Shown in pieces: positions 11,246 to 48,091 of a stretch of 64,000 nt of DNA. Source of the DNA: a phage; the NCBI GenBank assembly GCA_017003895.1, contig GCA_017003895.1_4520.1; one strand, written 5' to 3'. Position 1 is the first letter of the stretch; each line of letters begins with the position of its first letter. The translations under genes were made by a program, and so were the position numbers. The notes under the pieces were generated by a model. That model was not told the origin of the DNA. It did not search any database and saw only the letters and a program-made list of their open reading frames with translations.

Positions 11246-11611
11246 TTAAATATCGAATTCGTTCAGAACTACATCAAAGATTGCTTCTAGGTGTTCAGGT
11301 TTAGCTCGGTTACTCAGGATATGACGAATCCAAGTTTTAACCAGAAGTTTACGATTAACACCATTCCAGCAAGGATGAGTACCTAAATCACGCTGACGGA
11401 AATCATCATCTAATGCAATTTTAAAATTTGAACCTTCCATCGTGATTGAAACCGTGATACCATTTTCAAATCGCATATAAACGTAATTAGGAGTCATGCA
11501 CTGTTCGATTTCACAAACTGTACCGTTTTCGTGTTTCCATAAGCAAATAACTTCAGAAGAACCAGCAATACCGTTAGAAACATATTTACGTTCGAAGTTG
11601 ATGTAGTTCAT
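11246..11611 (-). CDS. Hypothetical protein
   Basis: 121-aa ORF preceded by an early-type promoter. Confidence 0.55.
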   Translation of the reverse strand: MNYINFERKYVSNGIAGSSEVICLWKHENGTVCEIEQCMTPNYVYMRFENGITVSITMEGSNFKIALDDDFRQRDLGTHPCWNGVNRKLLVKTWIRHILSNRAKPEHLEAIFDVVLNEFDI

Positions 11612-11652
11612 TTTATTCTCCAGATGTTTAAGTTGTTTATTGGTACAGGTCT

Positions 11653-11681
11653 ATAATAACATAACCTGTACCAAAGTAAAC
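11653..11681 (-). promoter_or_regulatory. Early (sigma70-type) promoter, GTTTAC-N17-TATTAT
   Basis: Minus strand reads cagTTTACtttggtacaggttatgtTATTATag; -10 lies in the loop of the inverted repeat ggtacaggt/acctgtacc. Confidence 0.55.
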
Positions 11682-11685
11682 TGTT

Positions 11686-12054
11686 TTATGCAACTTTAAT
11701 CCAATTGTCTAAATTTAAAACACCTTTGGCTTTCATTTTTTCTATCAGGTTATCTGCTGTAATGCGTCCATTTTGATACCATGTAACATCTTCAGAGTAA
11801 CCAGTTTCTTCGTCAACATATGTTTCTGAACGAATTTTACCGGTAATAATAGTTTTTAATTCGTATGTGTCACCTGTGAAAAAGTTTGCTAACACAATTT
11901 TCCAAGAGAAATCATCAGAAGGACCTTCAGGGGTCATACAACCTACGAACTCAAATTGCTCTTTGTATAACATCCACTGGAATTCTTTAATTTCGATAGC
12001 TTTATAACCATCGTGGTCTTTACATTTGATGTATGAGTTCAGATTGATTTTCAT
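11686..12054 (-). CDS. Hypothetical protein
   Basis: 122-aa ORF preceded by an early-type promoter. Confidence 0.55.
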   Translation of the reverse strand: MKINLNSYIKCKDHDGYKAIEIKEFQWMLYKEQFEFVGCMTPEGPSDDFSWKIVLANFFTGDTYELKTIITGKIRSETYVDEETGYSEDVTWYQNGRITADNLIEKMKAKGVLNLDNWIKVA

Positions 12055-12096
12055 TTTGTTCTCCAGGTTGTTTTATTGATTAGGTGGTACAAGTCT

Positions 12097-12125
12097 ATAG
12101 TAACACATCCTACAGGAGAGTAAAC
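12097..12125 (-). promoter_or_regulatory. Early promoter, GTTTAC-N17-TACTAT
   Basis: Minus strand reads gtTTACtctcctgtaggatgtgtTACTATag, about 40 nt upstream of the ORF start at 12054. Confidence 0.5.
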
Positions 12126-12154
12126 ATCTTTTTAAACTTTTTCTGCCCTAAACG

Positions 12155-12180
12155 CACAAAAGGGAGACCGAAGTCTCCCT
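12155..12180 (-). terminator. CUUCGG tetraloop hairpin terminator
   Basis: gggagac-cgaa-gtctccc; minus-strand hairpin followed by UUUU; 22-nt identical copy at 27559-27580. Confidence 0.55.
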
Positions 12181-12184
12181 AAAA

Positions 12185-12364
12185 TTATGCAACAACCTTT
12201 CCAAAACGAGAAGCATCATCTCGAAGAACTGCACGTGCTCTGCGCATGATCTTCTCAACTGTTTGATTAATACGAGAGTTCGACCCACGCTTGTATCCAG
12301 CGCGTTTAGAGGTACCATCAACTTTCTTTTCAACTGCTTTCTTTGCTTTAGCTTGTTTTGCCAT
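12185..12364 (-). CDS. Small highly basic protein (59 aa), not in the supplied ORF track
   Basis: Manual translation of the minus strand gives MAKQAKAKKAVEKKVDGTSKRAGYKRGSNSRINQTVEKIMRRARAVLRDDASRFGKVVA; ends just before the terminator hairpin. Confidence 0.45.
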   Translation of the reverse strand: MAKQAKAKKAVEKKVDGTSKRAGYKRGSNSRINQTVEKIMRRARAVLRDDASRFGKVVA

Positions 12365-12659
12365 TATAAATTCTCTTTAAATGAAAATGCAGGACTTATT
12401 GACATTGCCTGCGCAAGCCCTCAAGGGGAACATAGGTTTTGGATATTTAACGACAGGATAACCATAAACCCGTCATCATACCAACCACGACTTAGACAGA
12501 TAACCTTTTTCTGACGCGTGATAGTACAAAATACATTCAAGAGGTACACCGTAAAACTGCCGGGGCCTTAAAACTATAATGATTCGCAAATCATTAATCA
12601 GACAGTTCGACGGCTCCTCGATTTTCTAGCCGCACTTAAGGTAGCGAATCACCTAAAAC

Positions 12660-12908
12660 TTATTTAAGGGTAATAACAAAATGACGTACTGCTTTACGAG
12701 CTGCAGAAGCCAAAGGCTTAGCATATTTCAGTTCATCTTTTGCTTCCAGTTCAGAGGCCAAAGCTGCCTGTACCGGGTTCAGATGTTTGAAATAATGCAG
12801 GATTTCCAGTGCTTCGGCTTCAACATCAATCGACGCGCCGTAGTTTTCGTGACCGTTATTCCATGCGTTTCGTTGCAGTTCAAGAGCGTGTTGTAATTGT
12901 TTAATCAT
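12660..12908 (-). CDS. rIII: rIII lysis-inhibition accessory protein
   Basis: 82 aa, same length as T4 rIII; immediately downstream of gene 31 as in T4. Confidence 0.6.
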   Translation of the reverse strand: MIKQLQHALELQRNAWNNGHENYGASIDVEAEALEILHYFKHLNPVQAALASELEAKDELKYAKPLASAARKAVRHFVITLK

Positions 12909-13024
12909 TTTAAATTCTCAATTCGAGATAATATTTAGTAGCCACGTTCGTCTGAATTTCACCTTCTTTCGACAAGTCTCTCAGTTGTAGGCTACCGCTT
13001 AGAAGAGTGTTCTCTTCATATAGT

Positions 13025-13032
13025 TATTTATA
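13025..13032 (-). promoter_or_regulatory. Late promoter TATAAATA (minus strand) upstream of rIII
   Basis: Plus-strand tatttata is an exact reverse complement of the T4 late promoter consensus; about 115 nt upstream of the rIII start. Confidence 0.5.
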
Positions 13033-13365
13033 TCACTTATAAAGACACGGAATAGCTTTATAGTGGCATGTTACGAATTTCTGTTTAATTTCTTTAGGTT
13101 GTTTAAGTCCCAAAGCCACAAATGGATGTGGAACATTTCGAATTTGTCCAACTGGTAGTGGAGTCAAATCACCGACTTCAACAAAACCTTCAGGAACATC
13201 AGGACCTACAGAATGAACTACACATAGTTCAGGAACTTCACCTTGAACACGTTTACCAATCACAAGTCCTGATTCGGTAACTTCTTCATCACCTGCTTGA
13301 GCGGGTTCAGAAACCAGAATGACATATTCACCAACAGCACGAATTGGGAGTTGTACTTCAGACAT
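13033..13365 (-). CDS. 31: Co-chaperonin gp31 (GroES-like, required for major capsid protein folding)
   Basis: 110 aa; near-identical along its length to my recollection of T4 gp31 (MSEV...[29 protein letters not shown]...[15 protein letters not shown]). Confidence 0.85.
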
Positions 13366-13394
13366 CTTATTTCCTTGTTGTTTGACGATAGATT

Positions 13395-13420
13395 AATAAT
13401 ACCATACTATTCGTAAAGCA
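13395..13420 (-). promoter_or_regulatory. Candidate MotA-dependent middle promoter for gene 31
   Basis: Minus strand has the MotA box TGCTTTA (plus taaagca 13414-13420), a 13-nt spacer and TATTAT (-10). Confidence 0.4.
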
Positions 13421-13422
13421 TA

Positions 13423-13731
13423 TTACATAAGAAGCAAACGTTCTACCGGAGTACCATCAACCGAAATTACTTTATCAAGGCGGAAAGAACGCCACTGACC
13501 TAACTTGGTATCGAATGCTCGAACTGATTCACGAGGTTCAGAACGAACTTCTGATGCCGGATTGTTATTTTCATATTTGACTTCAAGTTCATCGCGAGAA
13601 GCAAACATAGTGCGTACCTCACCGTTAGCCTTTTCAAATACAACACAATGAACGCCTACAGACAGAATAGTTTTAATACGTTCACGAAGAACCATAGTTT
13701 CTTGTTCAGTTAAAATCATATTATTCACCAC
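13423..13731 (-). CDS. Hypothetical protein (31.1 position)
   Basis: 102-aa ORF between cd and 31. Confidence 0.5.
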   Translation of the reverse strand: MVNNMILTEQETMVLRERIKTILSVGVHCVVFEKANGEVRTMFASRDELEVKYENNNPASEVRSEPRESVRAFDTKLGQWRSFRLDKVISVDGTPVERLLLM

Positions 13732-14302
13732 AAAAGTTTCGGATTTGTTCCCAATTCAGAGAACGAAGATTATTACGAGAGTACTGAATTACTTCAATAC
13801 CGGCTTGTTTTAGAATGTCTGCCCAATTTTCAGGAGATCGGTCGTATAATTCTGCATATACAACCTTTTTAATACCTGACTGTGTAATAGCTTTAGTGCA
13901 ATCAGGACACGGAGAAAGCGTCGTATATAACGTAGCACCTTCAATAGAATTACCTTTACGAGCTGCAAATAAAATTGCATTCAGTTCAGCATGGATTTCA
14001 TTATTAGCAGACCATGCACTATGAGCGGCCCGATGTTCTTTAGCCAAAACAAAATTATCCACCCGTCCAAATGCTGTAGTGCCTTCTTTATGCCCAGCAA
14101 CGATGACCGGGCTTGGTTTATTCTTCAACCAACCGTTTTCGGATGCATGTTCGCAACAGTTTGTACCACCTGAAGGAGAGCCATTATAACCTGTAGAAAT
14201 AATGCGTCCATCTTTTTCAATGACGGCACCAACTTTCCATGAACAACATTTTGATTCTTGAGAAATCAAATAAGCAATTTGAAGATATGTGCTAGCTTTC
14301 AT
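13721..14302 (-). CDS. cd: dCMP deaminase
   Basis: 193 aa, same as T4 Cd; zinc-binding deaminase motifs HAELNAI and SPCPDC present. Confidence 0.9.
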   Translation of the reverse strand: MKASTYLQIAYLISQESKCCSWKVGAVIEKDGRIISTGYNGSPSGGTNCCEHASENGWLKNKPSPVIVAGHKEGTTAFGRVDNFVLAKEHRAAHSAWSANNEIHAELNAILFAARKGNSIEGATLYTTLSPCPDCTKAITQSGIKKVVYAELYDRSPENWADILKQAGIEVIQYSRNNLRSLNWEQIRNFCGE

Positions 14303-15294
14303 TATTGAACCTTATTAATATAAGTTAACAGCTCTTTAGTTTGTTCCCAACTGATGCACGCATCGGTAACGGAAACGCCATAGGACATATTATCAGAAAT
14401 TTTTTGATTTCCTTCATGTAGGAATGATTCTATCATAATTCCTTTGACCAAATCATTAGCTGCTAAATTTTTACCAATACCAATTTGATTGCTATAATGC
14501 CCAGCAGCGTTTGCATGGCTACAGTCAACCATTACATAATGATTCAGACCTACTGCACTTGCTTTGTTAGAAGCTTCTTGAATATCAGAAGAATGATAGT
14601 TCGGGCCGTTGGTCCCGCCACGCAATACGATATGCGTATTCTGATTACCTTCAGCTTCAACAATGCCTACAGTACCATCGACGTCCATACCCATATACCG
14701 ATGAGGCCTGGCGGCACTATACATCGCGTCTGTAGCTACTTTAATAGAACCATTGGTTGCGTTCTTGAAGCCTACGCACATCGGTAGACCTGAAGCAATT
14801 TCACGATGTGTCTGACTTTCAGTCGTACGGGCGCCAATAGCAACCCATGAGAAAATACCAGAAAGATACTTAATCGTGAATGGGTCTAATACTTCAGTTG
14901 CTAATGGAAGTCCCATACGTAGAAGTTTACGACACAATGTTCGTGCAACTATAAGACCGTGGTTCATATCAAAACTTCCGTCAAGATATGGATCATTTAC
15001 AAGACCTTTCCAACCTACGGTAGTTCGAGGCTTTTCAAAATAAACGCGCATCACTAACAGAACATTAGGAAGACGAGTTTGAAGTTCAGCCAGACGTTTG
15101 CCGTATTCAACAGCAGCAATAGGGTCATGAATTGAACAAGGACCTACAACGATAAGTTTGCGTGGGTCTTCACCGTTCATAATCGAATTAACTTGTTCGC
15201 GATGAGAAGCCACTTGTGATGCGTAAGCTTCCGACAAAGGAATAATCTCAGCCAGTTCTTTTGGAGAAATAAGTTTTCTGACGACAGGTAACAT
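14302..15294 (-). CDS. 3-deoxy-D-arabino-heptulosonate 7-phosphate (DAHP) synthase, class I (AroG/AroF/AroH-like)
   Basis: 330 aa; matches my recollection of E. coli AroG motifs (VGPCSIHDP, MRVYFEKPRTTVGWKGL, GARTTESQTHRE, VGFKN, ESFLHEGNQ); stop overlaps the cd start (TAATG). Confidence 0.85.
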   Translation of the reverse strand: MLPVVRKLISPKELAEIIPLSEAYASQVASHREQVNSIMNGEDPRKLIVVGPCSIHDPIAAVEYGKRLAELQTRLPNVLLVMRVYFEKPRTTVGWKGLVNDPYLDGSFDMNHGLIVARTLCRKLLRMGLPLATEVLDPFTIKYLSGIFSWVAIGARTTESQTHREIASGLPMCVGFKNATNGSIKVATDAMYSAARPHRYMGMDVDGTVGIVEAEGNQNTHIVLRGGTNGPNYHSSDIQEASNKASAVGLNHYVMVDCSHANAAGHYSNQIGIGKNLAANDLVKGIMIESFLHEGNQKISDNMSYGVSVTDACISWEQTKELLTYINKVQ

Positions 15295-41616: not shown

Positions 41617-41662
41617 AACGTTTTATTCATTCCACTTAGTTGATATGGATATAGTACCATTA

Positions 41663-41824
41663 TCAGTGTTGATTGTAAACATCTTTTTCTACACTTTTAA
41701 CGTAATTGGTGTAGTCTTCCTGTTCGTACGAGTGTAAGGCCAAGAACTGAACTAATAGTTCATTATAGACTAAAGCCTCACGCTCACGTTCGGCCTCTAC
41801 TACGTTCTGAAGATTATGACTCAT
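41663..41824 (-). CDS. Hypothetical small protein (start uncertain; track ORF extends to 41878)
   Basis: Track ORF overlaps the upstream gene by 53 nt; internal ATG at 41822-41824 removes the overlap. Confidence 0.35.
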   Translation of the reverse strand: MSHNLQNVVEAEREREALVYNELLVQFLALHSYEQEDYTNYVKSVEKDVYNQH

Positions 41825-41825
41825 A

Positions 41826-46687: not shown

Positions 46688-46715
46688 TTTGTGTTCCTCA
46701 TGTTTCAGTAGGACT

Positions 46716-46745
46716 ACTATACCATAATCCTACTGTGTTGTAAAC
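46716..46745 (-). promoter_or_regulatory. Early promoter, GTTTACA-N18-TATAGT
   Basis: Plus gtaaac at 46740-46745 and actata at 46716-46721; imperfect inverted repeat around the -10. Confidence 0.45.
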
Positions 46746-46937
46746 AATTAAATTACATTAAAATATGTTAAAGCCAACCATGTTCCAGTGAACGAACATG
46801 CAATGTAAAAAACCGTATCACAAAATGTTCTTAGTACAATAAGAAGTGCATTTTTCATAAGTACCTCAATGCAATTGAAAATATTATACAAATCATAGGG
46901 ATACTAAGCAACCATATTCCGATCCACATTTTAGAGC

Positions 46938-47227: not shown

Positions 47228-47257
47228 ACTATATCATAGTCCTACTTAGTTGTAAAC
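47228..47257 (-). promoter_or_regulatory. Early promoter (GTTTACA-N18-TATAGT) with -10 in hairpin loop
   Basis: Plus gtaaac at 47252-47257 and actata at 47228-47233; perfect 7-bp inverted repeat aggacta/tagtcct (47222-47243). Confidence 0.5.
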
Positions 47258-47827: not shown

Positions 47828-48050
47828 AGATACCTCTGATGTGTAGTTCGCCAAAATAAATGCGGTCACCTTCTTCAAGATATTCTGCATCTACCGGTGG
47901 GATTTCAATAACAACTTCGTCGCATTCTAACCAGCCGTAGTGTGCATCACCAGGATGTTTTACCAATTTAGCACAATAAACTGATTTACACTTATGATGA
48001 CCACGAAGATTAGCAATTTTGGATTCTGATACGTCAAATGGATGAATCAT
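47763..48050 (-). CDS. Hypothetical protein
   Basis: 95-aa ORF immediately downstream of rIIB. Confidence 0.4.
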   Translation of the reverse strand: MIHPFDVSESKIANLRGHHKCKSVYCAKLVKHPGDAHYGWLECDEVVIEIPPVDAEYLEEGDRIYFGELHIRGIYGKDELGTVETEESSDIYPVE

Positions 48051-48060
48051 AATTACCCCT

Positions 48061-48086
48061 AAAGAAAAAAGGGGACCGAAGTCCCC
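48061..48086 (-). terminator. CUUCGG tetraloop hairpin terminator after rIIB
   Basis: ggggac-cgaa-gtcccc; followed on the minus strand by UUUUUU. Confidence 0.55.
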
Positions 48087-48091
48087 AATTA

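Follow-up and report, generated by a model that had tools for sequence, protein, structure and literature searches.

A conserved mosaic of hairpin modules between phage genes rIII and 30.9, a candidate structured leader

We analyzed a stretch of phage DNA 64,000 nt long (GenBank assembly GCA_017003895.1, contig GCA_017003895.1_4520.1; hereafter, the window) and focused on the untranslated spacer between genes rIII and 30.9 (295 bp; positions 12365–12659, minus strand). Comparison with related phages suggests that this spacer is a cis-acting, structured intercistronic leader that controls the translation or the stability of the 30.9 messenger RNA (mRNA), a reading to which we give somewhat better than an even chance. 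The spacer is unannotated but would most likely belong, as such a leader, to a familiar kind of element. The evidence lies in its conservation, in its non-coding nature, in the covariation of four of its hairpin modules (A, B, D, and F), in its strandedness, and in the linkage of its core to 30.9.

The spacer had been picked out in an earlier reading of the bare sequence (the original prediction) as a structured gap without open reading frames (ORFs), lying downstream of rIII and before the next gene in an otherwise gap-free genome. Three roles had been put forward for it: a small RNA, a long structured leader, or a decayed gene. The 295-bp gap is real and coincides exactly with the rIII–30.9 spacer, the two neighbors being rIII and then 30.9, both on the minus strand. 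Counting as a gap any stretch not covered by an ATG-initiated ORF of at least 45 aa, it is the largest in the window; "gap-free" was an overstatement, since gaps of 250, 209, and 201 bp also occur (median 57 bp). The long structured leader is the best supported of the three roles, with modules D, F, and G preceding 30.9, compensatory changes in the stems, and G–U pairs that reveal the strand.

Conservation and modular build of the spacer

The source is a T-even phage of the Mosigvirus type, and positions 12100–12950 of the window are 100% identical to, for example, vB_EcoM_G53. We fetched 46 related loci (identified below by L numbers), 42 of which had both rIII and a recognizable 30.9 and gave 41 distinct spacers. 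Of the 47 T-even-like sequences compared, 43 (the 42 loci plus the window) contain both genes, always separated by 120–416 bp; the T4 gap at the same place is 244 bp. A search with the spacer matched 776 phage records, and in 516 of these the match covered 80% or more of the spacer. The spacer is at least as conserved as rIII: it is 91% identical to that of T6 (where aligned), and rIII DNA is ∼85% identical to that of T4-lineage loci, which are about as distant from the window as T6. Module D is conserved above the third codon positions of rIII in every lineage, and the rIII proteins of the compared lineages are only 65%–79% identical.

Alignment of the relatives resolves the spacer into a mosaic of seven hairpin modules on the gene-sense strand, named A to G from rIII toward 30.9 in the window. 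Their order and presence vary by lineage: D–E in the window, and E–D–F–G, D–A–E–F–G, or D–A–X–E–F–G in other genera, X being an additional element described below. T4 is without module C (a clean deletion), and L014–16 and L022 are without module A. Large indel polymorphism clusters at the spacer, with C absent from T4, A absent from several phages, and X variable. D, F, and G, which span 12365–12480 in the window, are kept in every 30.9-bearing locus, the one with the shortest spacer (120 bp) included.

Two relatives bear on the linkage of this core to 30.9. L041, which is without 30.9, has none of the modules; its 116-nt junction consists of a terminator, a consensus promoter, and a Shine–Dalgarno sequence and, compared with published examples (PMC4122927), is a canonical promoter-early stem-loop (PeSL) cassette. 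In L030 (positions 1747–2533), from a phage similar to Yersinia phage TG1, E–D–A–F–G are kept and 30.9 is replaced by an unrelated 208-aa ORF that retains the first 30.9-like codons (…SKAKAKTAVKE…). Together these loci fit a cis-acting cassette that travels with the translation start of 30.9. The L030 leader and start region behave like a portable expression cassette.

Comparative support for structure

Support for structure comes from comparison with relatives only and not from folding energy. The spacer folds no better than shuffled sequence, and the earlier description of it as structured draws its support from the comparison. Alignment of the interval across T-even relatives, a check proposed with the original prediction, did uncover compensatory changes. 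In the close lineage (11 sequences), 98.1% of alignment cells are paired (39%–48% in slid controls), and six pairs are compensatory, all in A and B, a result matched by none of 500 column shuffles, which ignore kinship. The structure belongs to the gene-sense transcript, because invariant G–U pairs would be A–C mismatches on the opposite strand.

Module D (12431–12480; this and all other modules on the minus strand), delineated in a family alignment of 28 distinct sequences, comprises a hairpin (S1) and a pseudoknot candidate (S2). GACGGG (12469–12474) pairs with CCUGUC (12452–12457) in S1 around an 11-nt loop (12458–12468), after which comes a conserved single strand, GUUAAAUAUCCAAAA (12437–12451). 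In S2, GGUU of the loop (12460–12463) can pair with AACC (12435–12438), which would give a hairpin-type pseudoknot. S1 is 88% paired across the 28 sequences, with compensatory changes in four of six pairs, and S2 is 71% paired, with such changes in four of eight. Covariation in D is 0.351, compared with 0.151 after shuffling (0 of 500 as high; shuffles ignore sequence kinship) and at most 0.173 in slid controls. Cognate duplexes between loop and downstream strand average −6.4 kcal/mol versus −4.1 kcal/mol for non-cognate ones (permutation p ∼ 5e-5), and examples of co-varying S2 partners are GUGAG/CUCAC, UUAGUAGUU/AACUACUAA, GUUGGUU/AACCAAC, CAAGGUU/AAUCUUG, and GAUGG/CCAUC. Judging by this covariation, D behaves at the family level as a hairpin-type pseudoknot.

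Module E (12414–12428), recognized by the conserved GUACCCYUUGAGGGCUUG, is a small hairpin, CCC-CUUGA-GGG (CCCUUGAGGG), with a conserved CUUG tail. In the window lineage it follows D, in others it adjoins the rIII stop, and its changes are one-sided only. Module F (12389–12412) occurs in every lineage just upstream of the ribosome-binding region; GCAGG (12408–12412) pairs with CCUGC (12389–12393) in a 5-bp stem with a 14-nt loop, and AUUUUCAUUU follows. This stem is the GCAGG/CCTGC repeat that had been spotted originally; in the bare sequence it was read at 12391–12395/12410–12414, a few bases from where it was first placed. It is invariant within the close lineage, and the same position holds a hairpin in all lineages with unrelated stem sequences (ACUGG/CCAGU, GAGAGGU/ACCUCUC, GGGAGC/GCUCCC, GGCUCUA/UAGAGCU, GUGGAG/CUCCAC). 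Module G (12371–12387), found in both the minimum-energy and the centroid fold, is a weak hairpin of UUUUC (12383–12387) and GAGAA (12371–12375) that covers the Shine–Dalgarno-like GAGA of 30.9. Its cells are 91.8% paired in the close lineage, and its counterpart in other lineages is UCUCC-N5-GGAAGA.

On the rIII side, module A (12626–12653) is a small hairpin in which UCGC (12644–12647) pairs with GCGG (12630–12633) around a conserved 10-nt loop, UACCUUAAGU. A compensatory change from G–C to A–U separates Mosigvirus from the T4 group, and 100% of the cells are paired; the module is optional and adjoins D or X in other lineages. Module B (12541–12619) is a 79-nt imperfect hairpin of four helical segments, present in the centroid fold and in the RNAalifold consensus, with compensatory changes in five pairs, ∼98%–100% of cells paired, and several invariant G–U pairs. 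Its apex, UAAUGAUU-UGCG-AAUCAUUA (12577–12596), is the inverted repeat TAATGATT/AATCATTA of the original prediction, which is genuine and lies at 12577–12584/12589–12596, a few bases from its first placement. A long-range repeat noted at the same time, TGATTCGC/GCGAATCA (12580–12587/12644–12651), is present as well, but comparison does not support its pairing, because T4 is mismatched there, the local hairpins covary, and module A is dispensable. The pairing first noted, 12583–12589 with 12643–12649, is probably fortuitous.

We propose that the interval is a transcribed, untranslated minus-strand RNA between rIII and 30.9. D to G (12365–12480, ∼115 nt) would form its conserved core and the structured 5' leader of 30.9, headed by D, a hairpin or pseudoknot whose conserved linker is A/U-rich and single-stranded, with F just before the ribosome-binding site, and the weak hairpin G occluding a poor Shine–Dalgarno sequence. 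This core would most likely determine, separately from rIII, how strongly gp30.9 is translated and/or how long the 30.9 portion of the message lasts. The 180 nt next to rIII (A, B, and C) are lineage-specific, and A and C would be accessory parts; the long hairpin B is probably a 3' stabilizer or an endonuclease processing site for the rIII message, and C would be an optional cassette and at best a weak early promoter. Effects on translation, stability, and processing, and any protein partner, are what we infer from these comparisons.

Coding potential, signals, and competing explanations

The spacer is non-coding. Its longest internal ORFs have 26 aa on the plus strand and 42 aa (GTG start) and 37 aa (TTG start) on the minus strand; ORFs of 37–42 aa have been annotated here by some submitters, and different records call different ones. 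Among the 41 distinct spacers of relatives, ORFs of at least 30 aa share neither frame, start, nor position, and five spacers have none of that length. A protein-coding gene or pseudogene was rejected, there being no shared ORF or frame-conserved remnant in the relatives and one-nucleotide indels within conserved blocks, and the decayed gene of the original prediction falls on the same grounds. A 10-codon ORF in module D (MMTGLWLSCR) was also discarded, its frame being shifted by one-base indels in close relatives, as was a 13-codon ORF that runs from the loop of F to a UAAUG on the 30.9 start, whose frame shifts and whose ATG is ACG in L014–16. This F-loop ATG (window 12402–12404, minus strand) is in frame with 30.9 in T4 and out of frame in the window. 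The T4T record (HM137666; L066:582–800) starts 30.9 there, giving 72 aa versus 58 aa; the longer version is probably wrong, because the ATG is out of frame in the window and absent in L014–16. For annotation, the "hypothetical proteins" of 37–42 aa called in the spacer should go.

A covariance-model search, another check that had been proposed, matched no known RNA family in the spacer. At a permissive E of up to 10, Rfam 15 gave only chance matches over positions 11500–13500, all outside the spacer, and none in the L029 spacer; at the gathering score, there was none in twelve related loci. ARAGORN called no transfer RNA (tRNA) or transfer-messenger RNA gene between 11900 and 13100. A decayed tRNA was rejected too, as an acceptor-like 10-bp pairing (12644–12653/12578–12587) has no D or T arms between its halves and forms no cloverleaf. 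No iterons were seen in the spacer, the sole direct repeat being one 10-nt pair; together with the T4 origin map, on which oriC lies near rI.-1, oriA near soc, and oriE/F/G likewise elsewhere (PMC3016281), this led us to reject a replication origin. A Rho loading site was dismissed as well: G exceeds C across the whole spacer, so that the interval is not a typical Rho-loading region. None of modules A–G has a second copy elsewhere in the window.

A scan of the spacer called no sigma-70, middle, or late promoter motifs and no terminators, and reading its sequence yielded no late (TATAAATA) or MotA-box (TGCTT) motif. F was not called as an intrinsic terminator, and its U-run is not conserved in L014–17; the sequence after B, UUGAAUGUAUUUU, has no clean U-tract. 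The RegB endoribonuclease/S1 target is a single-stranded GGAGRAYARAA (PMC1702504). The only GGAG of the spacer (12613–12616), in the basal stem of B, reads GGAGCCGUCGA, with C at positions 5 and 6, and is base-paired, and a RegB site was rejected. Because internal transcription signals are lacking, co-transcription of 30.9 with rIII is the simplest reading. Literature searches for T4 transcript-end maps and T4 small RNAs yielded nothing bearing on the interval.

Element X is absent from the window. It occupies the rIII–30.9 junction, at a site corresponding to window ∼12480–12530 (e.g., L029:1756–1898 and L013:1881–2023), where it takes the place of C in other relatives and lies between B and D or between A and E. 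It is 136–143 nt long and was found in 403 phage records, once per genome and mostly at least 94% identical, in phages of Klebsiella, Escherichia, Enterobacter, Yersinia, Citrobacter, Serratia, Edwardsiella, and Aeromonas. RNAalifold predicts 42 pairs, 20 of them with compensatory changes, in a fold with a closing helix, a GNRA-type hairpin, and two co-varying hairpin loops that look mutually complementary; in this model, X appears to have kissing loops. No Rfam family matches it, and a search of the window and of T4 (E up to 10) with a covariance model made from 14 copies gave no hit. In the records, the site is either unmarked or entered as "hypothetical protein" or "terminator." X is a promising candidate for a new family of structured RNAs and merits its own study.

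Several observations weigh against a 30.9 leader. Relative to shuffled sequence, the folding energy of the whole spacer is unremarkable on the gene strand (z = −0.01) and on the other strand (z = −0.79), as is that of the last 111 nt (z = +0.07), and E–G fold significantly (z < −3) in only two of 12 lineages, the window not being one of them. The shuffle controls make no correction for sequence relatedness. S2 in the window is only 4 bp long (GGUU/AACC) and, at −4.0 kcal/mol, equals the mean non-cognate value; G is A/U-rich and has no double compensatory change in the close lineage. Finally, the order of the modules differs among lineages, which fits autonomous units better than one leader. 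The spacer could be pictured as an array of autonomous RNA domains cut from the rIII–30.9 transcript. Such domains would work in trans, either as stable small RNAs or as decoys that engage RNases or RNA-binding proteins of the host; we regard this as unlikely. It would explain why modules are permuted, lost, and gained independently between lineages and why a self-contained, covarying 136-nt X recurs at the same site in so many phages; the single strand of D is highly conserved, in the manner of a small-RNA seed, and T4 does process stable RNAs of unknown function (rnaC and rnaD). No promoter or terminator bounds a unit, however, F has no conserved U-tract, D, F, and G always lie directly before the 30.9 start and vanish with 30.9, and there is no similarity to rnaC, rnaD, or any Rfam family. 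As for the small RNA of the original prediction, convincing delimiting signals and an Rfam match are missing, and it may be processed from the rIII–30.9 transcript. A wider version, in which the junction is a cassette site for a trans-acting family of autonomous structured RNAs (A, B, D, and X), is doubtful to the same degree. If true, such junction RNAs, shuffled between lineages, processed from early transcripts, and acting on the RNA-binding machinery of host or phage, would be a new class of phage non-coding RNA.

Neither do we put much weight on the spacer being a functionless relic of repeated cassette recombination (of the PeSL type, possibly involving a lost tRNA gene) that would persist only because deletions are rare. 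The large indels at the site and the random-like folding energy of the spacer would be expected of debris, C looks like a degraded early promoter, and "half" PeSLs have been described near indels (PMC4122927). In L045 (1501–1706) and identically in L046, a C-terminal fragment of rIII is followed directly by tRNA-Gln in a cluster of 12 tRNAs, and the 16 nt across this junction, TAATTTATTGGAGATT, recur exactly where a T4-type rIII stop meets the start of module A, which hints at an old recombination between spacer and tRNA gene. A relic sits poorly with conservation of D beyond synonymous sites across lineages with such divergent rIII proteins, with the compensatory changes that maintain stems in A, B, D, and F, and with the tight packing of T-even genomes, in which 120–416 bp of debris in every lineage is unlikely. 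Less probable still is that C is a working early promoter and that B, C, and the leader make up a long PeSL-type cassette restarting transcription for 30.9. Module C (12479–12526), defined from alignments, is an optional hairpin cassette with the inner stem CAGA/UCUG. Its A-tract (12506–12510), GTTATC (12499–12504), N14, ttgg, and TATGAT (12475–12480) resemble the architecture of T4 early promoters, which a literature record quotes as GTTTAC(N14)gtggTAttaT with an upstream A-tract, and approximate the PST/T4 PeSL consensus TTTACW-N17-TAYWAT (PMC4122927), with hairpin B upstream as in PeSLs. A weight matrix derived from 11 clear early promoters in the window ranks this site best in the spacer and within the top 0.1% of window positions, but its score of 4.6 lies far below the 16–40 of those promoters, and 111 positions score as high. 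With no sigma-70 call either, and with the cassette deleted in T4, we rejected it as a T4 early promoter. Other lineages carry X instead or change TATGAT to TATAAA, TATGTA, or GGACTT; a start ∼7 nt downstream (∼12468) would remove the 5' arm of hairpin D; and ∼110 nt separate the −10 from the AUG, unlike in a PeSL. We consider it highly improbable that the interval is a decayed protein gene or acts at the level of DNA, as a replication origin or as a palindrome bound by protein. The small annotated ORFs, the label "ori type 2 repeat" in ATK47, and the perfect 8-bp palindrome at 12577–12596 point that way, yet the ORFs start with TTG or GTG, differ between records, and are neither conserved nor intact in relatives, the mapped T4 origins and missing iterons count against an origin, and a variant of the palindrome in L022 keeps the RNA pairing through G–U and not the DNA symmetry. 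A cis-acting leader of 30.9 is the reading that we prefer.

Surrounding loci and comparison with known systems

The minus-strand gene order is gp31 (13033–13365), rIII (12660–12908, 82 aa), gp30.9 (12185–12364), a terminator hairpin, and gene 30.8. rIII was assigned from its ORF and its 100% DNA identity to annotated Mosigvirus records, and the annotation in those records and the T4 map back it. Gene 30.9, an ORF annotated as such in ATK47 and T4, encodes a Lys/Arg-rich protein of 59 aa; we found no functional domain or relative for it in Pfam, NCBIfam, or PDB, and it belongs to PHROG 1427, labelled "unknown function." If the spacer is a structured leader, it offers a handle on the regulation and the function of this small basic protein. 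T4 is the best-studied phage, yet the annotated records inspected show either nothing in this region of 244–295 nt or spurious small ORFs, and the locus shows RNA hairpin modules permuted between phage lineages.

Elsewhere in the window, the other ORF-free gaps of 200–250 bp lie at 46688–46937, 41617–41825, and 47891–48091. The first two hold strong GTTTAC-type early promoters (at 46745 and 41680, respectively), and another of this type (47257) sits in a smaller gap close by. An inverted repeat flanks the −10 hexamer in the early promoters at 47257, 46745, 17836, 15709, and 5137 (minus strand), e.g., gtaggactatgaTATAGTagtcctat; were a DNA or RNA hairpin to form there, the −10 would lie in its loop. 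A 330-aa ORF (14302–15294, minus strand) is an AroG-type DAHP synthase of aromatic amino-acid synthesis according to the ATK47 annotation. It adjoins the dCMP deaminase gene and has no counterpart at this place in T4, and the G53 record enters the region as a misc_feature and not as a coding sequence.

The nearest known systems are the PeSL cassettes of T4-like phages (Arbiol et al. 2010, PMC2839356; Comeau et al. 2014, PMC4122927). PeSLs and the spacer alike are regulatory mosaics that lie between genes of T4-type phages and are associated with indels and with module swaps between close relatives, and in each a stem-loop precedes an A/T-rich tract and sigma-70-like −35 and −10 elements; the PeSL stem-loop upstream of the promoter has its counterpart in B (12541–12619), upstream of C. 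PeSLs are short, run directly into a Shine–Dalgarno sequence and start codon, and occur in many copies per genome. The spacer, in contrast, has a weak, dispensable promoter-like part and ∼110 nt of conserved structured RNA (D–G) before the AUG, and although indels cluster at it, no module recurs within the window. The adjacent 30.9–30.8 junction (12055–12184, minus strand) is a canonical PeSL, with a terminator hairpin (GGGAGACUUCGGUCUCCC), an A-rich tract, GTTTAC-N17-TACTAT, and a GGAG Shine–Dalgarno sequence.

Among non-coding RNAs, rnaC and rnaD (species 1 and 2) are likewise T-even RNAs of unknown function that are processed from a longer transcript. They belong to a different locus, the tRNA cluster, and alignment detected no similarity to either the spacer or X (z −0.4 to 1.4). 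In phage T7, RNase III processing hairpins such as R1.1 lie between genes; B is comparable as an irregular hairpin of ∼25 bp with internal loops between two cistrons of one transcript, and T4 is not known to rely on RNase III sites. In the T-even gene 32 mRNA, a pseudoknot at the 5' end of the leader is the translational operator for gp32. The spacer resembles that leader in having a candidate hairpin-type pseudoknot at the upstream end of what would be a T-even early-gene leader, with A/U-rich RNA from there up to the ribosome-binding site. It differs in having no sequence relation to the gene 32 leader, an S2 of only 4 bp in the window, and the extra hairpins E, F, and G.

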